The notes beneath the pieces are model-generated. The model did no database searches, was not told the origin of the DNA, and was given only the letters and a program-made list of their open reading frames with translations. Of a stretch of 26,750 nucleotides of DNA, positions 5,139 to 14,211 are shown in pieces. The stretch is from a virus (Duplodnaviria; Heunggongvirae; Uroviricota; Caudoviricetes): IMG/VR virus record IMGVR_UViG_2529293065_000012; one strand, given 5' to 3'. The stretch's first letter is position 1. Every line of letters starts with the position of its first letter. The translations under genes and the position numbers were made by a program.

Positions 5139-7946
5139 ATGACGGCAGAGTACATCAGGGACTGGCAACAACCGCGCCACGCAGTGGGGCGTGAAGGAAC
5201 GGGGATCCCCGCTCCTGAATCCGCGCTTTCCTCCTGGCTGGATGCCTACCGGGTAGAGAACGAGCGCTGCCAGGAAATGGCTGATGCGGCGTTCTCCGCA
5301 ACGCCGCTGGGCAACCTGATTAATAAAAGCCTGGACGCACAGGAAAAACAGGACAAAACCATCACACTGGCAGGAGACGCCAGAAAACAGGCACGCGGCG
5401 CGGTGGATGAAGCCATGGCTTCGCTGCGCCTGCTGCCGTCCTATCTGCGCGATCCGCTTATTCGCCCCCTCTCCTTCCTGCGCAAAAAACAGGAAGCCGA
5501 TCGTCAGAAAGGCAAAAAGAGCTGGCAGGCTGAACGCTACGCGCGCGGAAACCTGCGCAAAATATTCGAACGTCTGGAGCGCACCGATCACCGCTGGCTG
5601 ACACAGGGTTATCGCTCCCTTGCCGGACGCGAACGCCTGGATGATTTGCTTTACCTGCCGCAGCTCAACCAGCACCAGATACAGACGCTGGCCACCATGA
5701 CGGCGGCGATGTTCAGCAGCACCTTCGAAAAACTCTGCGATGGCTTTGGCGCGACCGATGGCGAACTGACCATGGATGTAACGCTGAAGGCGTATCAGAT
5801 GCTGGCCCGCATGGGGTTACACCTGCACGCCATGCCGCCACATTACGAAGCTCTGAACAAGAGCGATCCGGATACGGAACTGTTACCGGGCGCAATCCTT
5901 CGCCTGACCTGTGCGGAATGGTGGAAACGCAAACTGTGGCTGTTACGTTGCGAGTGGCGGGAAGAACAACTCCGCGCCGCCTGTCTGGTTTCCAGAAAAA
6001 CATCGCCCTATCTGAGCCAGGACGCGTTAAGCGAGTTTCGCGCACAGCGCGAGAAAACACGCGATTTCCTGAAAAGTTTCATGCTGGAAAACGAAGACGG
6101 GTTCACGATTGATCTCGAGACAGTGTATTACGCGGGAGTAAGTAACCCGGTTCACCGTAAGGCAGAAATGATGGCCACCATGAAGGGGCTGGAACTTCTG
6201 GCCGAAGCCCGTGGCGACAAAGCGGTGTTTCTGACCATCACCTGCCCGTCAAAATACCACGCCACAACAGAGAACGGTCATCCGAATCCCAAATGGAACG
6301 GGGCCACCATGCGCGACTCCAGCGATTACCTGGTTAACACGTTTTTTGCGGCGGTCCGCAAGAAACTGAACCGCGACGGCCTGCGCTGGTATGGCATCCG
6401 CACGGTGGAGCCTCACCATGACGGCACCGTGCACTGGCATATGATGGTCTTTGCTCATCCGGAAGAAATCGACACCATTGTGTCCCACACCCGCGATATT
6501 GCCATTCAGGAAGATCGTCACGAGCTGGGTGATGATATTACCCCACGCTTTAAGGCGGAGTACGTCGACGGCTCAAAAGGCACGCCAACCAGCTACATCG
6601 CCACCTACATCGGAAAGAACCTGGACAGCCGCGCCGTAGATGGCATCGACCCGAAAACGGGCAAGCCACGCGTTGACCACGAAACCGGAAAATCAATGGC
6701 CGAGAGCGTGGAACGCGCCATCGGCTGGGCGCGCCTTCACCGTGTCCGCCAGTTCCAGTTCTTTGGTATCCCCTCCCGTCAGGTGTGGCGTGAACTCCGC
6801 CGCCTTGCCAGCCAGATGGCACGCAACCCGGAAGGCCCGCAACGGCTGAAGGATGACGCAATGGATGCGGTACTCGCTGCCGCTGATGCCGGATGTTTTG
6901 CCACCTACATAGAGAAACAGGGCGGCGTACTTGTTCCACGCCAAGACTACCTGATTCGCACCGCCTACGACCTCGCAGATGAGCTGAACGATTACGGCGA
7001 ACAGAGCGTACAGATTTACGGGATCTGGTCGCCGCTCATCGGGGAGTCTTCCCGCGTATGCACGCATCCGGATAACTGGAAGCTGGTAAGACGCAAACCG
7101 GAAGCGGAAGACAGCTCCCACGAAAATGGTTTTGACCTTCAGGGCGGCCCTGCCGCCCCTTGGACTCGTGGCAATAACTGTCCCCGTGTACAGGAAACGG
7201 ACAACAACGGGACAGAACAGCCGGAAGAACGGCCAGCACCGTGGCCGCAGCTTCCTGACGGCGTTGACGTGAATGAATGGATGCGCTCACTGAAACGGCA
7301 CGAACGCCGGGCGCTGATGCGTTCGCTGCGTGACAAACAGGCAAAAAACAGCAGTGATGAAATGCAGAACTGGACACAGAGCCGCAAACAGCCACAGCCT
7401 TTGCCTGATAACCACGAGTTACTCGCTAAAGAATGGCGGGAGTCTGCTGAATCTCTCGGCCTGCATATCGGTGAACAGCAGATGCAGCACCTGTTACGGG
7501 GCGGCAGTCTGTACGTTGACGGCAGCATCATTGCACCGCAGGGATTTGAAATTGTACGCAAACCGGATACCCGCCCGGACAGCCGAATCACGCAGCTCTG
7601 GCAACGCCTGAGTCGTAATCACGGCGTAAGCAGCACGGAGATCCGCCATAACCCGGTCGCCAGCTATCTGGAACAACTAGAGGCATCAGACCCTGAAGCC
7701 GCCGCACGCCTGGCATCCACACTTCAGCAAGACCAGAACACCATGAAAACACCAGTTACCGTACTTTCTGACATGCTGCGCGCCATCCGCGACGCAGAGC
7801 ACGCACAGAGAATCAGTGAAACCACTGAACGCGCCCGCCGCAAAGCAGACCTGCTGCGGGGTGGCCTGAGCAGTGGAAACAAAAAACAGACAAAAACGGG
7901 ATTCACAAATCCCGTAAATGAGCAAAAAACGCGCCGCGATATATGA
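5139..7946 (+). CDS. A: Rolling-circle replication initiation endonuclease (P2 gpA family), 935 aa with a long C-terminal tail
   Basis: FLTITCPSKYH, VEPHHDGTVHWHMMVF (HUH-type metal motif) and YIATYIGKN (paired catalytic Tyr) parallel P2 A FITLTCPSKYH, VEPHHDGTPHWHMMLF and YIAKYISKN. The start codon is uncertain because the SD is weak. Confidence 0.9.
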   Translation: MTAEYIRDWQQPRHAVGREGTGIPAPESALSSWLDAYRVENERCQEMADAAFSATPLGNLINKSLDAQEKQDKTITLAGDARKQARGAVDEAMASLRLLPSYLRDPLIRPLSFLRKKQEADRQKGKKSWQAERYARGNLRKIFERLERTDHRWLTQGYRSLAGRERLDDLLYLPQLNQHQIQTLATMTAAMFSSTFEKLCDGFGATDGELTMDVTLKAYQMLARMGLHLHAMPPHYEALNKSDPDTELLPGAILRLTCAEWWKRKLWLLRCEWREEQLRAACLVSRKTSPYLSQDALSEFRAQREKTRDFLKSFMLENEDGFTIDLETVYYAGVSNPVHRKAEMMATMKGLELLAEARGDKAVFLTITCPSKYHATTENGHPNPKWNGATMRDSSDYLVNTFFAAVRKKLNRDGLRWYGIRTVEPHHDGTVHWHMMVFAHPEEIDTIVSHTRDIAIQEDRHELGDDITPRFKAEYVDGSKGTPTSYIATYIGKNLDSRAVDGIDPKTGKPRVDHETGKSMAESVERAIGWARLHRVRQFQFFGIPSRQVWRELRRLASQMARNPEGPQRLKDDAMDAVLAAADAGCFATYIEKQGGVLVPRQDYLIRTAYDLADELNDYGEQSVQIYGIWSPLIGESSRVCTHPDNWKLVRRKPEAEDSSHENGFDLQGGPAAPWTRGNNCPRVQETDNNGTEQPEERPAPWPQLPDGVDVNEWMRSLKRHERRALMRSLRDKQAKNSSDEMQNWTQSRKQPQPLPDNHELLAKEWRESAESLGLHIGEQQMQHLLRGGSLYVDGSIIAPQGFEIVRKPDTRPDSRITQLWQRLSRNHGVSSTEIRHNPVASYLEQLEASDPEAAARLASTLQQDQNTMKTPVTVLSDMLRAIRDAEHAQRISETTERARRKADLLRGGLSSGNKKQTKTGFTNPVNEQKTRRDI
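7892..7919. repeat. Copy 1 of a 28-bp direct repeat containing the 20-bp palindrome ACGGGATT-CACA-AATCCCGT
   Basis: The palindrome lies at 7896-7915, inside the last codons of A. It is repeated 73 bp downstream. Confidence 0.8.
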
Positions 7947-8022: not shown

Positions 8023-8982
8023 ATGAAAATTTGTATCGACGACGGCTCCACCAACATCAAGCTGGCATGGACTGAGAACGGCGAATGCCGCAACGCCATC
8101 AGCCCGAACAGCTTCAAGTCGGAATGGTCTGCGCCGTTCGGTGTCACGCAGCCCGCGAACTACATGCTTGATGGCGTGCGCTATGGTTTTGATCCGGTCA
8201 GCGATCGCTTTGTCCAGACGACCGACACGCAATACCAGTACAGCGATGTGAATGTCATTGCCATTCATCACGCGCTGGTCAAATCAGGCATCACGCCACA
8301 GGAAGTGGATGTGGTTGTCACCCTGCCACTGAGCGAGTATTTCGACACAAACGCACAGCCGGATATGACCAACATCAACCGCAAAAAAGCGAACGTCATG
8401 CGCCCGGTGGAGTACCAGAACGGTGAGGCATTCACTATCCGTAACGTGCGGGTTATGCCTGAATCCATTCCGGCTGGCTTTAAGGCACTGGCTAACATGA
8501 GTCCGTTTGAATCCCTGCTGATTGTGGATTTAGGCGGAACCACGCTGGATGTGGCAAAGGTTCAGGGGCAACTGGCAGGTATCAGCCAGGTGTTTTGCGA
8601 TCCACACGTAGGCGTTTCTCTGATGGCCGATGCCGTACTGTCGGTGATGGCCACTAACGGTATGCGCACCAGTCACCACATCGCCAATACCATTATCGAA
8701 CATCGCCATGATGAAGCCTGGCTGCGCCAGCACATCCACAATGACGCGCATTACGCCAGCCTGATGGCGGTTATTCGTGAAAAGGAAGAAACACTGAAAC
8801 AACGCGTGATCCGCGCGCTGGCGGTTTTTTCGGGTTACGGGCGGGTGATGGTTGTCGGTGGCGGGGCGGAGATTGTGGCACCCGCTATCCGCGAAGCCTG
8901 CGGAGTTAATGCGACTTTCATCGCGGACGGGGTGCCACAGTTTGCTCTGGTTAATGGGCTGTACGCAATGGACAAGGAGTAA
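8023..8982 (+). CDS. parM: ParM/StbA actin-like plasmid segregation ATPase (319 aa)
   Basis: Colinear by eye with R1 ParM along the whole length: IDDGSTNIKL, ISPNSFK.EW, QYSDVNV.A.HHAL, RKKAN, VMPESIPAG, DSLLI.DLGGTTLD, GISK/Q, GVSL, FSGY..VMV.GGGAE, LVNG.Y. Confidence 0.9.
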   Translation: MKICIDDGSTNIKLAWTENGECRNAISPNSFKSEWSAPFGVTQPANYMLDGVRYGFDPVSDRFVQTTDTQYQYSDVNVIAIHHALVKSGITPQEVDVVVTLPLSEYFDTNAQPDMTNINRKKANVMRPVEYQNGEAFTIRNVRVMPESIPAGFKALANMSPFESLLIVDLGGTTLDVAKVQGQLAGISQVFCDPHVGVSLMADAVLSVMATNGMRTSHHIANTIIEHRHDEAWLRQHIHNDAHYASLMAVIREKEETLKQRVIRALAVFSGYGRVMVVGGGAEIVAPAIREACGVNATFIADGVPQFALVNGLYAMDKE

Positions 8983-8986
8983 ACCA

Positions 8987-9301
8987 ATGACGACATCAAC
9001 CAGACGGATAAGTTTCTATCTGAAGCCAGACGCCGTCAAGAGTGAACAAGAGGCGTGCAATTACCTCGATAGCCTGCCAGCCTCCGAACGCAGCCGCGCG
9101 CAACGCGCGGCCTTTCTGGCCGGACTGGCACTCATAAAACGCAACCCAGCATTTGCCTACTGGATGGCCGAATGGCCAGAGGATAACCTCCCCTTCAATA
9201 CCATTAGCACCAAGGAAACATACCAAGATAATCCGCCTAGCGGAATTGAATGCAATTTTTATAAAATAAAAAAGAATATTCAGACCTTATTCCCTGAATA
9301 A
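8987..9301 (+). CDS. parR: ParR/StbB-like centromere-binding adaptor (104 aa)
   Basis: RRISFYLKPD...LDSLPASERSRAQRAAFLAGLAL parallels R1 ParR RRTIAFKLNPD...LDSIPQGERSRLNRAALTAGLAL. The start was taken at the ATG at 8987, 5 nt after the parM stop, rather than the track start at 8852, which overlaps parM. Confidence 0.75.
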   Translation: MTTSTRRISFYLKPDAVKSEQEACNYLDSLPASERSRAQRAAFLAGLALIKRNPAFAYWMAEWPEDNLPFNTISTKETYQDNPPSGIECNFYKIKKNIQTLFPE

Positions 9302-9350
9302 TCTGATAATTGAATTTGAACTAATAAAACACATACCAACACATCATTCT

Positions 9351-9373
9351 GGCACCCTTGCTAACAGGGTGCC
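9351..9373. terminator. Hairpin between the convergent parR and 280-aa genes (no clear U-tract)
   Basis: GGCACCC (9351-9357) pairs with GGGTGCC (9367-9373) around a 9-nt loop. It sits between two converging stop codons. Confidence 0.35.
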
Positions 9374-9385
9374 AATGATTTCAAA

Positions 9386-10228
9386 TCATGATGAAATTGC
9401 CGAAGTTTTTTTATCGTGCTGAAGTACCGCAAATGCCATCAAAACCTCAAGAGAATAGCGGCGATAATACTTAACAAAACCATAATAAAATACTCGAGAT
9501 GCAGCAAGAAAAAACAAGAAAAGAGGACCAAAAGGTAACAATCTGATATTTATATCTATTAAGTAAGATAGAGGGGCTAGACACATAATCAACCAGACTG
9601 AGGCGAGAAAAACGAATGTAATGTTTCTACAAAAACCATATAGAGCAACATAGTTTTGTATTTTCAACTGATGATTTTTCGAATGTTCATACACATAATG
9701 ATAAGCAAGACGAAAAAGATCTCCCCTCAACCCTTTGCGTCGATACAACGTAGAAACAGAAAAATTATTTATATAGCCATTTCGTATTTGCGGCCAAAAG
9801 GCCTTAATAAGTATAGGATGTAGTGTGGTTTTATGACACTCAGCTTTATCAAGAATTGATACAGGAAACAAAAAAACTCTACGAATAAAATTAAATATCT
9901 GGAATCCTGTACCACGGCGTTTTATTTTCAGGGGGTTTTTCGGGGAAAACAGATAAGTCGAAGGATATCCAAGCTTACTGTTCATGTATTTTTCAATTAA
10001 ACAGGATGATAGAATAGATATGAAGTGACCTAAAATATATGATAGAACGATCAATGTCACATACATAAACACACTTATTATTTCTTTATATTTCAAGATG
10101 TGGTTTAGAATACTCTCGACATAACCAGGGTTAATTTCAATAGAAAACAAAAAAAGGATAAACAGGAATAATCCACCTGGAATTAGATACCCCAAAAAGT
10201 CATAAAATGAAAACGGATTCTGTGTCAC
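9386..10228 (-). CDS. Unknown polytopic membrane protein, about 4 TM helices with a central soluble region of about 120 aa (280 aa)
   Basis: A GTG start at 10228 is preceded by an AGGGGGAA SD. Hydrophobic segments are FLGYLIPGGLFLFILFLFSI, IISVFMYVTLIVLSYILGHFISIL, ITFVFLASVWLIMCLAPLSYLI and LLPFGPLFLFFLAASRVFYYGF. The region is AT-rich (19/60 G+C hand-counted at 9601-9660). No family was recognised. Confidence 0.75.
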   Translation of the reverse strand: MTQNPFSFYDFLGYLIPGGLFLFILFLFSIEINPGYVESILNHILKYKEIISVFMYVTLIVLSYILGHFISILSSCLIEKYMNSKLGYPSTYLFSPKNPLKIKRRGTGFQIFNFIRRVFLFPVSILDKAECHKTTLHPILIKAFWPQIRNGYINNFSVSTLYRRKGLRGDLFRLAYHYVYEHSKNHQLKIQNYVALYGFCRNITFVFLASVWLIMCLAPLSYLIDINIRLLPFGPLFLFFLAASRVFYYGFVKYYRRYSLEVLMAFAVLQHDKKTSAISS

Positions 10229-10267
10229 ACTTCCCCCTGTGCTACTTGTAAATTAAAGAGTCAAACA

Positions 10268-10765
10268 TTATTTGTTTTTCCGTAAAGGATTAGCTTTCCA
10301 TCTTCTTACTAACCATTCGAATTCTTGATATGTAGTATCCGAATTAATGCTTTCTCTGATTGCTTTAATTAATGGCTCGGCAATATCATATGTCTCTACA
10401 ACTGTTGTGTAAGATGTTCTTTTTATCATTTTTTCATCATAAATACCTTCACGAATACTTACAGCAACTCGCTCGTAAAAATTTAAAATATATTGAAATT
10501 TTCGACGCTCGGCCATTTCCTCATCTGTTATTGTACAACCATCACAAGGAAAAACATAAGAACGAAATGATTTGCCTGAACGATGCACTTGTTTCAGGGT
10601 ATGCAATGACTCTATATATTGCATATCTTGCCGACTCTCAAAAAGAAAGTTAGCCGTTTGAGTTTTCTTTGCGGTACGCACATTGTAGATAATGGTTCCA
10701 ATGGCAACCAAAACGCCAAGCAGAACAATAGCATTGCTGATGATTTGTAGTGTTATTGGGTTCAT
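10268..10765 (-). CDS. Unknown N-terminally anchored protein, 1 TM plus a helical domain, possibly DUF4760-like (165 aa)
   Basis: The N-terminal helix is ITLQIISNAIVLLGVLVAIGTIIYNV. The core ILNFYERVAVSIREGIYDEKMIK resembles what I remember of DUF4760, but this is unverified. It is the first gene of an AT-rich two-gene operon, 39 nt upstream of the 280-aa gene. Confidence 0.75.
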   Translation of the reverse strand: MNPITLQIISNAIVLLGVLVAIGTIIYNVRTAKKTQTANFLFESRQDMQYIESLHTLKQVHRSGKSFRSYVFPCDGCTITDEEMAERRKFQYILNFYERVAVSIREGIYDEKMIKRTSYTTVVETYDIAEPLIKAIRESINSDTTYQEFEWLVRRWKANPLRKNK

Positions 10766-10778
10766 CCTATTTCATCCA

Positions 10779-10807
10779 TAAAAAAGGCGGGGAGCAAATC
10801 CCCGCCT
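10779..10807 (-). terminator. Canonical intrinsic terminator on the minus strand, 14 nt upstream of the 165-aa gene start
   Basis: The minus strand reads AGGCGGGGA-TTTGC-TCCCCGCCT followed by TTTTTAT. This is a 9-bp GC-rich stem, a 5-nt loop and a U-run. No U-run occurs in the plus orientation. Confidence 0.7.
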
Positions 10808-10826
10808 CATTAGAGGTCAACGTAGC

Positions 10827-10862
10827 TTAGAAACCATCAAATTCATCATACATTTTTTTCAT
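10827..10862 (-). CDS. Candidate 11-codon leader ORF (MKKMYDEFDGF)
   Basis: The minus strand reads GAGGGGG-TTGAT-ATG, a strong SD with a 5-nt spacer. The stop lies 19 nt before the terminator stem. It is too short to judge from coding statistics. Confidence 0.3.
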   Translation of the reverse strand: MKKMYDEFDGF

Positions 10863-10885
10863 ATCAACCCCCTCATAGAAATCAT

Positions 10886-10902
10886 AACCACGTTTTGTGG
10901 TT
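10886..10902 (-). other. Small leader hairpin (AACCAC / GTGGTT) between the candidate promoter and the leader ORF
   Basis: A 6-bp stem with a 5-nt loop, seen directly in the sequence. Confidence 0.4.
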
Positions 10903-10914
10903 TTTGTGACGCAT

Positions 10915-10943
10915 AAACTACATCAAAGGCAAGCCACGGTCAA
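10915..10943 (-). promoter_or_regulatory. Sigma70-like promoter candidate for the cargo operon (TTGACC-17 nt-TAGTTT)
   Basis: On the minus strand the -35 TTGACC lies at 10943-10938 and the -10 TAGTTT at 10920-10915, with an exact 17-nt spacer. The predicted TSS is near 10908, about 128 nt upstream of the terminator U-run. Confidence 0.4.
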
Positions 10944-10962
10944 ATATATAGGCATGCTTACC

Positions 10963-10989
10963 TGCACAAAAGTGCACAAATTTGCACAA
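10963..10989. repeat. Three TGCACAA motifs with exact 10-bp phasing
   Basis: TGCACAA occurs at 10963-10969, 10973-10979 and 10983-10989 (minus strand TTGTGCA x3). The repeats lie between the cargo promoter candidate and the cos candidate. Confidence 0.6.
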
Positions 10990-11020
10990 TTTTTTTGAAC
11001 GACTTTTTGCCCTTCCGGCC

Positions 11021-11039
11021 CGCGTGGCGGCTGGAGCCG
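11021..11039 (+). other. Candidate cos cohesive-end core
   Basis: CGCGTGGCGGCTGGAGCCG partly matches the remembered 19-nt cohesive ends of 186 (GGCGTGGCGGGGAAAGCAT) and P2 (GGCGAGGCGGGGAAAGCAC), sharing the GCGTGGCGG core. Its position and orientation relative to Q are as in P2. Confidence 0.3.
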
Positions 11040-11059
11040 TCAAGGATCCGTGCATGCAC

Positions 11060-11083
11060 AAAAAAACGCGCTTTTTCTGCGCG
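11060..11083 (-). terminator. Minus-strand terminator-like hairpin with a T7 run downstream of Q
   Basis: The minus strand reads GCGCG-AGAAAAA-CGCGC followed by TTTTTTT. The stem is a short 5 bp, all G-C. Confidence 0.4.
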
Positions 11084-11362
11084 CAGGTGACGGGGGAACA
11101 GCCCGCGTTTCAGGGGGTAAATAGCATCCCCTGAACGATGTCGCAGCGACACAACAGAATGGCTGTATTTCTCACGCTGAGCGTGAAGAATACGTGAGGG
11201 ATTCTGATTTGATGGGGTGAAAGGTAAGGCCGTCAAAATCGCACTGAGGCGGCGAGAACATGCAGTCAACGCGGTGGGATTGCGTAAGAGTCTGACCGTC
11301 GATGGTGGCGATAAACTGGAAGGCGTCGTGAAATTATCTGACTGATACAGGAGCTGGAGAGT

Positions 11363-11387
11363 CGGGGCATAAATTTTTTATGCCCCG
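11363..11387 (-). terminator. Hairpin 26 nt downstream of the Q stop
   Basis: CGGGGCATAAA / TTTATGCCCCG form palindromic 11-nt arms. No separate U-tract follows on the minus strand. Confidence 0.4.
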
Positions 11388-11413
11388 GCGAAGCAGCAGA
11401 CAAGCGAAGCGCG

Positions 11414-12460
11414 TCAGGATGTGGGCAGGGTGTCTAACAGTGCGTAAGGGTTAAAGCGGATCACCTCTTCGCCAAGCCAGTCATTGATGTGCTTCATGGC
11501 CTCCATGACGGGCATCAGCTCGTTAATTGCGTAAACCCGCGCGGCCTTCTCCACATCACCAAACGCACTTTTTTCACCCGGCATCGCCCCCATCAGTTGC
11601 GGCGGAACGCGGTGCGCAGCCAGCACATCATCACGGGATGCCGCCTTAACATTCATGAACTCATCCTTTGCGGTGATCTGCTGGAACGGCAAAATTTGCA
11701 CCCCCTCTTTGCCCCCGTTGGGCGCATGAATGAGCACGTTTTTAAACGCACCACCACCACGCGCACCCTGTAGCGTTTCTTTCAGGGAGTCCATGCTTTC
11801 GCGGTTTACCTGCGCTGCACCGATGTAGATGATGCACCCGGCGTGGGATCCGTTGTCGTAATACAGTTTTCTGAACATGTCCGCCGAATGAGACAGGCTG
11901 GCCGAGAGTAATGCGCCGAGATATTCCGGCATGCCGTAGATTTCCTGGTTAATGTCCGGATTCATCAGGTGGCACACTTTGCCTGGGCGAAACTGAAACG
12001 CATCCTTGCCATCCTGCACATACCACCATGATTCAAGATCGCTTCCGCGTCGCATGTATTTCGCCAGGGCGTGCCGTAATTTAAGCGGTTCGCCGAGCAT
12101 ATTGCTTCGAAGCTCAAGGAATGCGTTACCGAACACAAACCAGTCCAGCGCCAGCGCCGAGAAATCCTGCCGGGAAAGCAGCGGGTGCGGGATGTAGCAA
12201 CCGAGCAATACATTGCGCTTAAAGTAAAGCGCAGACTGATGCCAGGACGTTTGCCGGGCGGCTCTTGCCAGACCGTACCAGTCCACCGGGGTTTCATACC
12301 ACCGCCCGTTATCAGCACAGTACATATTGTCCAGCAGGTCATGCCCGGTCAGGCGATAAGGACCATCAAATGTGAATGCACTGAGCGATGATTCTTTCCT
12401 GAGCGCATCAGCGAGATCAATGCGTGAACTCATGCGCACTTTTTTATTTTTTCTGCTCAT
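11414..12460 (-). CDS. Q: Portal protein (P2 gpQ family, 348 aa)
   Basis: NGRWYE, FVFGNAFLE, NPDINQEIYGMPEYLGAL, FKNVLIHAP, HRVPPQLMG and GWLGEEVIRF parallel P2 Q. The start overlaps the P stop (ATGA). Confidence 0.92.
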   Translation of the reverse strand: MSRKNKKVRMSSRIDLADALRKESSLSAFTFDGPYRLTGHDLLDNMYCADNGRWYETPVDWYGLARAARQTSWHQSALYFKRNVLLGCYIPHPLLSRQDFSALALDWFVFGNAFLELRSNMLGEPLKLRHALAKYMRRGSDLESWWYVQDGKDAFQFRPGKVCHLMNPDINQEIYGMPEYLGALLSASLSHSADMFRKLYYDNGSHAGCIIYIGAAQVNRESMDSLKETLQGARGGGAFKNVLIHAPNGGKEGVQILPFQQITAKDEFMNVKAASRDDVLAAHRVPPQLMGAMPGEKSAFGDVEKAARVYAINELMPVMEAMKHINDWLGEEVIRFNPYALLDTLPTS

Positions 12461-14211
12461 CAGAACTCCATAACCGTGAAACGCTCGTTTTCTCCTTCGC
12501 CGCCAATTGGTTCGTTAATGACAGCAAGCATGGTTGCCCACGCAAGGTCGCCGTGGCTGATCCCCCTCGCGCGGTCCGTTTCGTAAGTGATAAAGCCGCC
12601 CGGTGTTTTCACCTTACGCACGGCGTTAAAGGCCGCGACCAGCTCGCGTTCGGCGCGATCGTATTCCCACCGCCCGGCACGCATTATTTGCAGCATTTTC
12701 AGTACCAGCGACCGTTTTGATGACAGCGTGAAGGTGTACGGAATAGCGGCAGGGAAAAACCGTTTCACTATCTGATAAACAGCCTCCCCGTTCCCGCCCG
12801 TCACATCAATGCCGATGTGTTCCACGTTGTAGCGACACGTGAACTCTTCAATGACTCTGGCCTGTTCTTCAAACTCCAGCCCCTGAACGCGTCGCGTCTC
12901 CACCGTTCGAAAACGGCCACCAGGAACAGACGGAGGAACCACCACGGACACAGCGCCGCTGTCGCCGTTGCCACTGCTGCCGTTTGCGTCATACCCAATC
13001 CATACCGGACGATTCCCCATCGGGCGGGGAGCAAAAGGTTTCCAGTCTTTCCAGTCGTCGTATCCGTCAACGCCACAGCCAATCAGGATATTCAGGTTAA
13101 ATGCCGATTCCCCTTCGCGGACAAACTCACACATATAGAGATTGAGGAACTCGTCTTCGGTGTTTTCATCACGAATTTCATCAATATCGGTGTGTTTCCA
13201 GCCGTGATTAACCACATCTTCCAGCGTGACAATTTGCCGCCACGTCCGGTCAGGGCAGATAAGCCCGTTATGCAGCGTTTTCCAGTCCACAGAAAAACGC
13301 TGGCGTTTATGCGAGGCCTTTTTCTCGTTCCAGCGGTCGCCGTTCCAGTAGGCGTATGCCTCGTGCGTTTCGGTGGATGGCGTGGAGAAGTAGGTGCGCC
13401 GCAGTCCGCTGAGGGTTGCCATAGCGCCAGCCACCTTGCGCAGTTCAGCAAAGCGACTGACCCAGAAAAATTCATCAAAATAAAAATTGCCCGTATAGGA
13501 CTGTGCCGACGCAGCAGAAGTGCCGAGAAAATGCAGCTCTGCGCCGTTGGAGAGGATGATTTTATCGCCCCCTTTCAGCTCCACATCAACTTCAGCCGCG
13601 GCCTTCTGAATAATGCTTTTAAACTGGAACGCCTGACGACGCGACGCAGACAAAAAAATCTGGTTACGCTGGTAAGGTTGCGCCACATCGTCACGCAGCG
13701 CCATCAGCAGTGCTTCCTGTGCAAAATACCAGGTCGCCCCAATCTGTCGGGATTTCAGGATCATCCTGTTACGTATCCCGGCTTCCCTGCAAAGGGTCAG
13801 GGAGTCAAACCAGCCCCGCTGATGCCACTCCAGCCTGCTGATGATTTTTTCCCGCAGTGCGGCAATCTGTTCCGGCGTGAAATGATTTTTGAGTTTTTTC
13901 GCCCGGCCTTTCTTTCCTGTGGCCGTCGCATCCGGCTGGCCATCATGCAGTTTTTTAAGCTGCCGGGTCAGCAGGTCTATTTCCTTGAAGTCACCACCTG
14001 TTTTATTCTGTTTTTCAGTGAGCTGGATGAGGCGCGCATCGATGGACTGCGTGACACGCTGCACGGGTGGCGTTTCATCCCACTGGTCGCGTTTTTTCCA
14101 CGCATAAATCGTGTTCGGGTTTATTCCCATCAGACGTGATATTTCTGCGGGCGGATAACCCTGCCAGTAAAGTTGCCGCGCACGCTGGCGCACAAAAGCG
14201 TCCTGAATCAT
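12460..14211 (-). CDS. P: Terminase large (ATPase) subunit (P2 gpP family, 583 aa)
   Basis: It has an N-terminal HTH-like segment (YPPAEISRLMGINPNTIYAWKKRDQWD) and a Walker-A-like ILKSRQIGATWYFAQEA. Its position and orientation next to Q are as in P2. Confidence 0.9.
   Translation of the reverse strand: MIQDAFVRQRARQLYWQGYPPAEISRLMGINPNTIYAWKKRDQWDETPPVQRVTQSIDARLIQLTEKQNKTGGDFKEIDLLTRQLKKLHDGQPDATATGKKGRAKKLKNHFTPEQIAALREKIISRLEWHQRGWFDSLTLCREAGIRNRMILKSRQIGATWYFAQEALLMALRDDVAQPYQRNQIFLSASRRQAFQFKSIIQKAAAEVDVELKGGDKIILSNGAELHFLGTSAASAQSYTGNFYFDEFFWVSRFAELRKVAGAMATLSGLRRTYFSTPSTETHEAYAYWNGDRWNEKKASHKRQRFSVDWKTLHNGLICPDRTWRQIVTLEDVVNHGWKHTDIDEIRDENTEDEFLNLYMCEFVREGESAFNLNILIGCGVDGYDDWKDWKPFAPRPMGNRPVWIGYDANGSSGNGDSGAVSVVVPPSVPGGRFRTVETRRVQGLEFEEQARVIEEFTCRYNVEHIGIDVTGGNGEAVYQIVKRFFPAAIPYTFTLSSKRSLVLKMLQIMRAGRWEYDRAERELVAAFNAVRKVKTPGGFITYETDRARGISHGDLAWATMLAVINEPIGGEGENERFTVMEF

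Follow-up and report, generated by a model that had tools for sequence, protein, structure and literature searches.

A DUF4760 gene with a conserved leader and a Csx27-related membrane protein gene as possibly independent modules at the gpA-gpQ hotspot in a P2-like prophage

Do two membrane protein genes that lie side by side in an AT-rich islet of a P2-like prophage form one phage defence system, or are they two modules that have come to share a place? The question is raised by a stretch of viral DNA of 26,750 nucleotides (Caudoviricetes, IMG/VR record IMGVR_UViG_2529293065_000012; in its full length referred to as the window), in which the initial annotation had seen a two-gene operon, perhaps of recent horizontal origin, and a candidate for a novel membrane-acting defence or exclusion system. 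The two co-oriented open reading frames on the minus strand are present as claimed, one for a protein of 165 aa with one transmembrane (TM) segment (gene A, 10268-10765) and one for a protein of 280 aa with four such segments (gene B, 9386-10228), and they are separated by 39 nt (10229-10267). The claimed AT-richness was also evident, with a GC content of 0.32-0.39 across the islet (0.32-0.37 over positions 9200-10800) as compared to 0.51-0.61 in the flanks. The islet and its flanking genes are:

9300..10900, no strand assigned: AT-rich cargo islet (composition profile, flanking genes and the hotspot definition of PMC9122126)
8023-8982: flanking gene for ParM
Ending at 9301: flanking gene for a Plasmid_stab_B-like protein
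11414-12460: flanking gene for the portal protein

On one side, the islet is bordered by replication gene A, ParM and Plasmid_stab_B and on the other side by portal and terminase genes, and its site corresponds to the gpA-gpQ hotspot of P2-like E. coli prophages as defined by Rousset et al. (2022, PMC9122126). In this hotspot, old, tin and three more systems have been validated as anti-phage, and genes that do not serve defence are also among the cargo (Rousset et al. 2022, PMC9122126). The view of genes A and B as horizontally acquired cargo, in a hotspot with validated anti-phage systems, is supported. The 19-mer of P2 cos found no match in the window, even when up to three mismatches were allowed, and no cas genes are present in the window. 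Neither gene matched a characterized defence system in PADLOC (PADLOC-DB v2) or NCBIfam, the only signal being a weak match of gene B to Csx27.

The description of the cassette as novel did not hold, because the identical pair of genes is already listed as system #3 in Table S5B of Rousset et al. (2022, Cell Host Microbe, PMC9122126), where the entry reads 'DUF4760; 1 TM in protein 1, 4 TM in protein 2' and the system is counted in 1102 of 18,150 P2 hotspot loci. It is catalogued only and does not appear in the tables of cloned systems (PMC9122126). Protein 1 of system #3 equals the gene A product except for one residue, protein 2 is an 87%-identical allele of the window's gene B, and the locus is the same, gpA to gpQ. 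Among 5426 complete E. coli genomes, 289 carry the cassette, with the gene B allele of the window being rare (two of the 289). Present in about 6% of the hotspot loci and in 5% of complete E. coli genomes, with ST131 and O157 strains among the carriers, the cassette belongs to the commonest cargoes of the P2 hotspot.

The two genes were then considered one by one, starting with gene A:

10268..10765, minus strand: gene A, 165-aa DUF4760 protein, ATG start (open reading frame and Pfam)

The assignment of gene A to DUF4760, raised as a possibility by the initial annotation, proved correct. Residues 12-156 align with positions 2-141 of the 141 positions of PF15956 (E = 1.1e-34, 120.1 bits with a cut-off of 25, Pfam HMM), and the RefSeq annotation of the gene is likewise DUF4760. 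Hydropathy agrees with the single N-terminal TM segment seen before and places it at about residues 4-27; the remainder is predicted to form an all-helical domain, on the cytoplasmic side according to the positive-inside rule. Searches of PADLOC and NCBIfam with gene A were without any match, profile searches of PDB sequences with genes A and B returned chance-level matches only, and our literature search did not retrieve a functional study of DUF4760. By two methods, the DUF4760 model came structurally closest to the EP domain (PF18117) of the plant proteins EDS1, PAD4 and SAG101. In Foldseek, EP-bearing chains accounted for 11 of the top 15 matches, with probabilities of 0.75-0.99, TM scores of 0.51-0.59 and E-values of 0.2-1.7 that are not significant; the alignment takes in the TM helix, and that it falls on the EP part is deduced from the all-helical nature of the query.

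DUF4760 is best described as a predicted single-pass inner-membrane protein, the helical domain of which may adopt an EP-domain-like fold. While both domains are all-helical, sequence identity is 6-11%, Pfam did not match gene A with PF18117 at E <= 1, and no EDS1-family chain occurred in the gene A profile search of PDB sequences. The EP domains of EDS1, PAD4 and SAG101 are fused to a lipase-like part, and the proteins form heterodimers that bind nucleotides made by TIR proteins; in DUF4760, both the lipase-like part and a heterodimer partner are missing, and a TM anchor takes their place. The window does not contain a TIR gene, and we did not find a paper linking the EDS1 EP domain to bacteria via Foldseek. 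If the similarity in fold reflected homology, the plant EDS1 family would gain its first relative outside plants. Two other candidate relatives from Rousset et al., a 1-TM protein belonging to the AC1 TIR system and the 1-TM effector of the RT-nitrilase system, were discarded, as hhalign probabilities stayed below 1% for either of them, leaving a link from TIR to EP-like proteins unsupported.

Gene B and its immediate surroundings comprise:

9386..10228, minus strand: gene B, 280-aa protein with four TM helices, GTG start (phrog_12528)
10229..10267, minus strand: spacer between genes A and B, 39 nt, carrying the Shine-Dalgarno sequence AGGGGGAA of gene B and no terminator (sequence)
9351..9373, minus strand: hairpin GGCACCCT-guuagca-AGGGUGCC without U-run, 13 nt past the gene B stop codon (sequence)

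Here, too, the earlier reading of the protein was accurate. A strong Shine-Dalgarno sequence, AGGGGGAA, directly precedes the GTG, hydropathy indicates four TM helices (approximately residues 10-30, 50-78, 198-218 and 226-248) with which the helices of the AF2 model (pLDDT 72) agree, and the central 120 residues, described as basic and aromatic, contain 19 K/R and 21 F/W/Y. The protein from the window is unmatched in Pfam and NCBIfam and hits the PADLOC model for Csx27 with its N-terminal 74 residues only (E = 4e-5, 22 bits, below the curated cut-off). Its family is large (1120 clusters at 50% identity, E <= 1e-3), and 32 of 44 diverse members match PADLOC Csx27 with a best E-value of 1.3e-8, some family members spanning positions 4-190 of the 206 in the model, while 6 of the 44 match NCBIfam CAS_Csx27; every one of these matches falls below the curated cut-offs. 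Judged by sequence, the gene B family is thus a remote homologue of Csx27 and not Csx27 proper, and gene B would bring this membrane protein family into prophages. Over the 44 diverse homologues, 19 residues are invariant, including D10, E79, H177, H186, R201, K253 and E261, which is more suggestive of a dedicated site for binding or catalysis than of a simple pore. The hairpin past the stop codon is likely to mark the 3' end of the transcript or to stabilize it, and standalone gene B homologues possess a comparable hairpin (containing GGGTGCAGCC) directly 3' of their stop codons.

In order to assess the linkage between the genes, profile HMMs for both families were run over 96 loci. Genes A and B occur as a pair solely in the near-identical cassette, i.e., in locus L001, whose host is an E. 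coli ST131 strain, and in the viral contigs L031-L037, the host of which is unstated. Outside this cassette, gene B was not encoded beside DUF4760 in any of 21 loci from other species, nor was DUF4760 encoded beside gene B in any of 59 gene B loci, such that the proposed two-gene system finds no co-occurrence in other genomes to build on, an outcome that the initial annotation had itself named as refuting its proposal. Linkage is confined to one E. coli prophage lineage, and elsewhere each family stands alone. In Xenorhabdus, Kluyvera and Dryocola, solitary DUF4760 genes reside in this P2 hotspot as well; others form single-gene chromosomal islets of low GC content, many of the standalone copies being followed by a terminator-like hairpin (e.g., L010, L012, L014, L015 and L017). 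Solitary gene B homologues belong to lambdoid prophages, where they are located directly upstream of the integrase gene in 46 of 59 gene-B-only viral loci as well as in reference loci L002 and L006, with varying genes on their own upstream side. A 60%-identical gene B fragment in the same hotspot (P0004) is cut by the end of its contig and is uninformative with respect to linkage.

The two genes also differ in their divergence. Between the window and the ST131-type cassette, identity amounts to 100% for the leader, 99.0% for gene A (dS 0.039), 92% for the spacer and 89.3% for gene B (dS 0.28), corresponding to an approximately sevenfold jump in dS at the junction. Among the 289 E. coli genomes, gene A reaches at least 99% identity in 275, whereas gene B does so in two only. 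Both genes are under purifying selection (dN/dS = 0.27 for gene B). We consider the chances to be about even that the islet arose from two single-gene modules, each mobile by itself, that met in the gpA-gpQ hotspot, and that it is not an obligate two-component system. If so, each gene should be cloned separately, with the native leader kept.

Several observations speak against independence. Each of the 289 E. coli genomes with gene A also has gene B, two gene B alleles that differ by about 10% adjoin one and the same gene A, which selection for keeping B beside A could explain, and neither a terminator nor a convincing promoter was found between the genes. Together with the spacing of just 39 nt, which in the absence of a terminator makes co-transcription likely, with the presence of the pair in 1102 P2 hotspot loci and with the fact that both products are inner-membrane proteins, they would fit a genuine two-component membrane system, in which the 4-TM protein acts as effector and DUF4760 as sensor or regulator, or with these roles exchanged, both being needed for exclusion or abortive infection. 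Such a system is unlikely in our view, given the complete lack of co-occurrence in the 21 and 59 loci outside the cassette, the solitary life of each family elsewhere with a 3' hairpin of its own and the rise in dS between the genes; moreover, common descent alone can account for linkage within a single prophage lineage.

Membrane protein genes close to the integrase of lambdoid phages are often conversion genes. The location of the gene B homologues, next to integrases and thus at the usual site of conversion genes, therefore raises the possibility of a role other than defence, be it lysogenic conversion or modification of the envelope, or, as a post-segregational killer beside ParM/StbB, maintenance of the prophage in plasmid form. 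The 19 invariant residues would agree with this, as would the E. coli cassette always adjoining the ParM/Plasmid_stab_B partition module and the non-defence genes among the hotspot cargo (PMC9122126). However, the partition module is present in a quarter of P2-like phages, whatever their cargo (PMC9122126), DUF4760 genes of other genera occur in P2 hotspots and chromosomal islets devoid of partition genes, and neither Gtr nor acyltransferase nor any other enzyme family was detected for A and B. Overall, we regard a role of this kind as improbable.

The initial annotation had overlooked a constant companion of DUF4760, namely an upstream open reading frame of 11 codons followed by a terminator. 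Upstream of gene A, the leader is composed as follows:

10915..10943, minus strand: candidate promoter, TTGACC (10943-10938), 17-nt spacer, TAGTTT (10920-10915), read from the sequence and below the scan threshold
GTCACA (10910-10905), 18-nt spacer, TATGAT (10886-10881), minus strand: alternative candidate promoter (consensus scan)
10886..10902, minus strand: hairpin AACCAC-AAAAC-GTGGTT, 5' of the mini-ORF Shine-Dalgarno sequence, paired in the minimum free energy (MFE) structure
10827..10862, minus strand: mini-ORF MKKMYDEFDGF*, 11 codons, with the strong Shine-Dalgarno sequence GAGGGGG, not annotated in RefSeq
10778..10826, minus strand: leader past the mini-ORF stop, with the anti-Shine-Dalgarno-like box GUUGACCUC, then the terminator hairpin, then a U-run (terminator scan and fold)
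10808-10784, minus strand: intrinsic terminator GAGGCGGGGA-uuugc-UCCCCGCCUU, 10 pairs, seven of them G-C (terminator scan)
10762..10779, minus strand: 5-codon open reading frame MDEIG*, starting where the U-run ends and overlapping the gene A ATG with its TGA (ATGA) (sequence)

The promoter consensus scan gave weak matches only, and sites were no commoner than in shuffled sequences. The mini-ORF precedes DUF4760 in 20 of 20 full-length loci from several genera and ends on D-E-[F/Y]-[D/E]-[G/W]-[F/L/C]; in one of the 20 (L018), loss of the stop codon extends the reading frame by four codons. Codon usage in the 17 unique tails varies between GAC (6) and GAT (11) for Asp and between GAA (8) and GAG (9) for Glu, and this synonymous turnover indicates that it is the peptide that is conserved and not the DNA. 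The MFE structure of the leader (-39 kcal/mol, z = -3.3 versus shuffles) contains the strong terminator, 19 nt 5' of the gene A start codon, and pairs the Shine-Dalgarno region with the GUUGACCUC box. This helix was judged by per-sequence folds, which predict it in 9 of 17 loci, because column-wise covariation on alignment A4 was spoilt by misaligned Shine-Dalgarno registers. RNAalifold yielded a small hairpin that encloses the mini-ORF stop codon and exhibits two-sided changes, and the terminator hairpin is kept with changed sequence in L016, L023, L024, L098, L107 and L118. Other palindromes take the place of the hairpin 5' of the mini-ORF in seven DUF4760 loci (L010, L012, L014, L015, L016, L021 and L023). 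No Rfam family came near its gathering score for the leader. The overlap of MDEIG* with the gene A start could serve translational coupling; the ATGGA...ATGA layout recurs in L012 and L013, and L010 has TTGA, its DUF4760 gene starting with TTG in place of ATG. The general layout resembles that of an attenuator, with a short open reading frame and an intrinsic terminator upstream of DUF4760 that are conserved among relatives. Among the points that speak against attenuation, the distant loci L025-L027 have the hairpin without a U-run, and a clear antiterminator was not found in the leader.

DEFDGF mini-ORFs are also encountered elsewhere in phages. Some of them contain tandem motifs and others lack a downstream gene, and the latter suggest that the peptide may act in trans. 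The functional pair could then consist of the peptide and DUF4760, the former being an antitoxin-like neutralizer or regulator or a mimic of acidic-aromatic tails such as the SSB tip, the tail DDDIPF of which we take to be comparable. Terminated transcripts would supply an abundant, short-lived acidic peptide, and its loss upon shut-off of translation would set DUF4760 free. The conservation of the peptide rather than its codons, its linkage to DUF4760 in all 20 loci and the order of upstream gene, terminator and downstream gene, which leads to a surplus of the first product, are in line with this idea. On the other hand, the same peptide is encoded ahead of unrelated genes, i.e., for a 175-aa protein (no match in Pfam and PHROGs), a Mre11-like and a primase-like protein, and is therefore not specific to DUF4760; in T4-like phages, DEFDGF peptides are likewise encoded ahead of genes for replication and recombination. 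The helix at the Shine-Dalgarno sequence, the stop codon hairpin and the terminator all fit regulation in cis, and we assign a low probability to a trans-acting pair. A functional study of DEFDGF was not found in the literature. More speculative still is the thought that DUF4760 is the phage or bacterial counterpart of the plant EP domain, a receptor module tethered to the membrane within an immune pathway, with a phage micro-peptide family ending in DEFDGF-COOH controlling its expression or activity; within this far-reaching scenario, the micro-peptides may be an undescribed, widespread family of ribosome-arrest leaders or acidic-aromatic tail mimics.

For the originally proposed membrane-acting defence or exclusion system, neither the novelty nor the two-gene unit is supported. 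With two membrane proteins encoded in hotspot cargo and no match to a characterized system, phage exclusion or abortive infection at the membrane is still the most natural guess and the likely function, with the leader as a putative gate; the defence role is inferred from location and architecture. Returning to the composite islet as our preferred reading, the first module would comprise, in this order, promoter, short hairpin, MKKMYDEFDGF reading frame, anti-Shine-Dalgarno-like box, terminator, 5-codon coupling frame and DUF4760. The second module would be the 4-TM protein of the Csx27 superfamily, elsewhere a solitary accessory gene beside lambdoid integrases. In the cassette, it appears to have taken the place of the 3' terminator of the first module and would thereby share a transcript with it. 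During lysogeny, transcription would mostly end at the leader terminator so that mainly peptide is made. When the coupling of translation and transcription on the leader shifts, for example upon infection, read-through would lead to both membrane proteins, each of which might on its own block entry of a superinfecting phage or collapse the membrane.

Among established proteins of this kind, SieB of P22 and lambda, Imm of T4, RexB of lambda and KwaA of Kiwa are also small inner-membrane proteins and prophage cargo. RexB and KwaA have four TM helices each. SieB is cargo of the very same P2 hotspot (Rousset table, PMC9122126). Sequence kinship with SieB, RexB or Kiwa was not detected, as neither A nor B matches the Pfam model for SieB or the PADLOC models for RexB and Kiwa. 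System #3 itself is treated as a single system by Rousset et al., whose account describes neither the leader mini-ORF nor a link to Csx27, and neither an EP-like fold nor independence of the two genes. With Csx27, an accessory membrane protein of type VI-B1 CRISPR-Cas13b, gene B shares four predicted TM helices and the N-terminal motif region. It differs in its length, which exceeds that of Csx27 by about 75 residues, in the conserved basic loop of about 120 aa that connects TM2 to TM3, and in its prophage setting, with neither cas13b nor a CRISPR array nearby. Makarova and co-workers are said to have recognized a wider 4-TM 'Csx27 family' in 2019. A channel for single-stranded DNA has been proposed for Csx27, as relayed in PMC7642515.

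The leader resembles leader-peptide attenuators (pyrL/pyrBI, trpL, erm/cat) in having a short open reading frame with its own Shine-Dalgarno sequence, an intrinsic terminator directly 5' of the regulated gene, here DUF4760, and a predicted RNA pairing of the Shine-Dalgarno sequence. It departs from them in that a run of regulatory codons and a recognizable antiterminator are missing, that the mini-ORF stops 18 nt 5' of the hairpin, that the acidic-aromatic chemistry of the tail is conserved in place of the codon run, and that the DEFDGF motif recurs in many unrelated phage loci. DEFDGF mini-ORF and terminator together could represent a new regulatory device or peptide class common to many phage accessory genes.

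The window is a P2-like prophage with integrase, early region, replication, partition, portal, terminase, capsid and tail genes, and its islet, flanked by the partition genes on one side and the portal gene on the other, lies in the gpA-gpQ hotspot of P2-like phages that is the home of old and tin (Rousset et al. 2022, PMC9122126). At 32-39% GC the islet is AT-rich relative to its surroundings (51-61% GC), as the initial annotation had noticed, and the two minus-strand ORFs were placed there at exactly the right coordinates; the initial observation holds. The relevant features are:

5139-7946, replication gene A (not gene A of the cassette)
8023-8982, plus strand, ParM/StbA gene
ending at 9301, plus strand, Plasmid_stab_B-like gene
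9386-10228, minus strand, gene B, 280 aa, GTG start with AGGGGGAA just before it, 39 nt downstream of gene A
10268-10765, minus strand, gene A (DUF4760), 165 aa, ATG start
from the end of the terminator's U-run, minus strand, 5-codon ORF whose TGA overlaps the gene A ATG; three other loci are similar
10808-10784, minus strand, strong intrinsic terminator, 10 pairs and then a U-run, 19 nt before the gene A start codon
10862-10827, minus strand, mini-ORF encoding MKKMYDEFDGF, 11 codons, strong Shine-Dalgarno sequence, upstream of the terminator
11414-12460, portal gene
12460-14211, terminase gene

The ParM/StbA and Plasmid_stab_B partition module (8023-9301, plus strand) directly adjoins the cargo. 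It is system #1 of Rousset et al. (2022, PMC9122126), found in 4592 loci or about a quarter of P2-like phages, and the E. coli DUF4760 cassette is always listed with it. On the other side, the interval between cargo and portal (10863-11413) measures 551 bp and carries more terminator-like hairpins (11084-11066 and 10987-10972); in an ST131-type prophage (L001:7566-8827) it spans about 1.26 kb and includes a further annotated ORF, of 174 aa, that runs the opposite way. No match to the P2 cos 19-mer occurs within the window.

The co-occurrence of genes A and B was followed with profiles built for both families, with which all six frames of the fetched loci were scanned (22 DUF4760 loci from one-genome-per-species contigs and 66 gene-B loci from viral contigs). 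The pair was found only in a near-identical cassette, namely in L001 (E. coli ST131 host) and in seven viral contigs with unstated hosts (L031-L037), the gene B of which is 86-87% identical to that of the window. Gene B is present in none of the 21 other DUF4760 loci, with flanks of at least 8 kb, and DUF4760 in none of the 59 other gene-B loci, where gene B is at most 47% identical; the two-gene system proposed initially is not borne out in these loci. In Xenorhabdus, Kluyvera and Dryocola, DUF4760 is solitary in this very P2 hotspot; it also stands alone in other phage regions and as a lone low-GC gene amid housekeeping genes. A terminator-like hairpin of its own follows DUF4760 in many of the solitary copies that we read (e.g., L010, L012, L014, L015, and L017). 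Gene-B homologues, in turn, are solitary in lambdoid prophages, with their own 3' hairpin and varying upstream genes, and an integrase gene lies directly downstream in 46 loci (among the 59 gene-B-only viral loci and the reference loci L002 and L006). In two Rahnella genomes (L016:8522-8600 and L021:8523-8600), the standalone DUF4760 islets end beside a tRNA-gene-like sequence (…GGTTCGAACCCTC…), which suggests insertion at a tRNA-associated site.

Divergence between the window and the common ST131-type cassette (L001)
Leader: 100% identity
Gene A: 99.0% identity; dS 0.039; dN/dS 0.07
Spacer: 92% identity
Gene B: 89.3% identity; dS 0.28; dN/dS 0.27

When the cassette (9386-10862) is compared with L001 and with the 289 E. 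coli genomes carrying it, divergence breaks sharply at the junction of the two genes: identity to the window reaches at least 99% in 275 of the 289 for gene A and in only 2 for its gene-B allele. Because of this contrast in identity, genes A and B must have had different histories even within the cassette. They are two membrane-protein genes of different origin, both under purifying selection. In E. coli, gene A is always accompanied by gene B, with no terminator in between, so we keep a true two-component system in consideration at a low level of credence; the linkage is weighed as common descent in one prophage lineage, and the absence of the pair from the sampled loci outside the cassette speaks against such a system. 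A stack of two single-gene modules describes the cassette better.

Where the initial annotation took gene B as the partner of DUF4760, the constant companion, which it had missed, lies upstream: the mini-ORF and terminator precede DUF4760 in all 20 full-length loci from other genera. Variants of the peptide, which is without RefSeq annotation, include MKKLFDEFDGF, MMKKAHDEFDGF, MEAMFDEYDWF, MIKFIRDEFEGF, and MKRMDEFEGC; one locus has lost the stop codon, so that its ORF is extended. Several features speak for a function. Among 17 distinct tails, synonymous codons are used about evenly (Asp GAC 6 and GAT 11, Glu GAA 8 and GAG 9) and replacements are conservative (F/Y, D/E): selection acts on the chemistry of the peptide. 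The hairpin is kept with differing sequences (e.g., GGCGGAGA/TCTCCGCC, GGTGAGTC/GACTCACC, GATCGGAGG/CCTCCGATT), and the leader fold is more stable than shuffled sequences (-39 kcal/mol, z = -3.3). In the predicted fold, a conserved ACCUC box immediately before the terminator forms a helix with the Shine-Dalgarno region, and this helix is predicted in 9 of 17 loci. RNAalifold additionally placed a small hairpin around the mini-ORF stop codon (10827-10845; columns 89-102 of A4, the alignment of DUF4760 leaders), in which bases right after the stop change together with third-codon positions (GAT/GAC, GGT/GGC), with two-sided changes at two pairs in 5 of 15 sequences. No Rfam family matches the leader. 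On the evidence of this conservation, the conserved unit is mini-ORF, terminator and DUF4760; gene B sits where the 3' terminator of the module would be and should therefore share the leader's control.

DEFDGF peptides are not confined to DUF4760. Scanning viral contigs for the back-translated DEFDGF-stop motif showed such mini-ORFs to be widespread in phage contigs, with at least 80 loci (e.g., L105:1474-1494, L103:8058-8078, L115:10723-10743, and L156:3236-3256). In the 80 loci fetched among the matches listed (L097-L176), DUF4760 follows in 23, while about 15, from lambdoid and Stx-type phages, combine MKKKRMNDEFDGF and stop with a hairpin and an unannotated 175-aa protein that has no Pfam or PHROG match. 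Other loci among the matches listed have MKDEFDGF, stop and terminator with no evident gene behind, or tandem forms (MKDEFEWCDEFDGF and MLDEFEGFDEFDGF, each followed by a stop). T4-like contigs (160-350 kb) have short DEFDGF-ending ORFs just upstream of the genes for a primase-like protein and for an Mre11-like phosphoesterase; upstream of a 5'-3' exonuclease gene the ORF is longer (63 aa) and shares the C-terminal tail. One reading of the peptide is a portable leader that acts in cis, via arrest or attenuation; the other is an acidic-aromatic C-terminal peptide that acts in trans, reminiscent of tails like DDDIPF at the SSB tip. A peptide acting in trans as a pair with DUF4760 is a reading that we consider improbable.

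Protein A does belong to DUF4760 (PF15956, E = 1.1e-34), as the initial annotation had suggested, and hydropathy agrees with the single N-terminal transmembrane segment assigned to it. Its confident AlphaFold2 model (pLDDT 92.3) shows a helical bundle and a long N-terminal helix, the membrane anchor, which extends into the cytoplasm. Independently, EDS1 chains filled 11 of the 15 top places in Foldseek (probability 0.75-0.99, TM 0.51-0.59) at non-significant E-values of 0.2-1.7; since protein A is all-helical, the match probably falls in the helical EP domain, a domain reported to lack significant structural homologues beyond the EDS1 family (PMC6377607). We report a fold resemblance, not homology, because no sequence-level support was found, no TIR gene lies near the cassette and no relation to the transmembrane proteins of the phage AC1 TIR system emerged. 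The sole domain fusion seen among the DUF4760 matches listed is P0229 (287 aa, ENA metagenome), which joins DUF4760 to PF06541, a membrane domain of putative type IV ABC-transporter proteins.

Hydropathy gives protein B the four transmembrane segments seen initially, with a central loop of about 120 residues that is basic and rich in aromatics; its AlphaFold2 model is mediocre (pLDDT 72) and the fold search gave nothing informative. Its family is large, comprising 1120 clusters at 50% identity (E <= 1e-3). Of 44 diverse members, 32 match the PADLOC Csx27 model (best 1.3e-8, several near full model length), 10 the VI-B-associated 'tm_4' model and 6 NCBIfam CAS_Csx27, which fits the 'expansive 4-TM Csx27 family' credited to Makarova et al. 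2019 in PMC7642515. A few members weakly match the PADLOC candidate PDC-M48A. Alignment A3 of these 44 sequences, only 26-49% identical, contains 19 invariant residues (P5, F6, D10, F11, G13, P17, Y64, G67, S74, E79, P89, P122, H177, H186, Y193, G198, R201, K253, and E261), which favours a specific site over a simple hydrophobic pore.

Genes A and B, which are probably on one transcript, are preceded by the conserved leader ORF and its terminator and lie in a hotspot whose anti-phage cargo has been validated. In the lysogen, most transcription would stop at the leader terminator; changed ribosome behaviour on the mini-ORF might then allow RNA polymerase to read through, upon which DUF4760 and the Csx27-like protein would be inserted into the inner membrane, each independently excluding or aborting superinfecting phage by pore formation, a block of DNA entry or signalling as candidate modes of action. 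To this picture as a whole, leader-attenuated and with each protein acting alone, we lend belief and doubt in about equal measure. A role outside defence, in conversion or prophage maintenance, seems unlikely to us.

The cassette is present in 289 of 5426 complete E. coli genomes, ST131 and O157:H7 strains among them. Its genes are abundant yet uncharacterised and offer two leads worth testing. A literature search found no functional work on DUF4760, and the cassette proteins are absent from the tables of cloned systems, validated and negative alike, of Rousset et al. (PMC9122126). To judge from the literature searched, the conservation of the DEFDGF leader, the independence of A and B, the link between gene B and Csx27 and the EP-like fold of DUF4760 are new. 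The pair itself is not, and its initial reading as a novel two-gene system was only partly right: it is system #3, 'DUF4760', in Table S5B of Rousset et al. (PMC9122126), listed for 1102 of 18,150 loci with '1 TM in protein 1, 4 TM in protein 2'. Protein 1 of that system differs by one residue from protein A of the window, and protein 2 is an 87%-identical allele of protein B.
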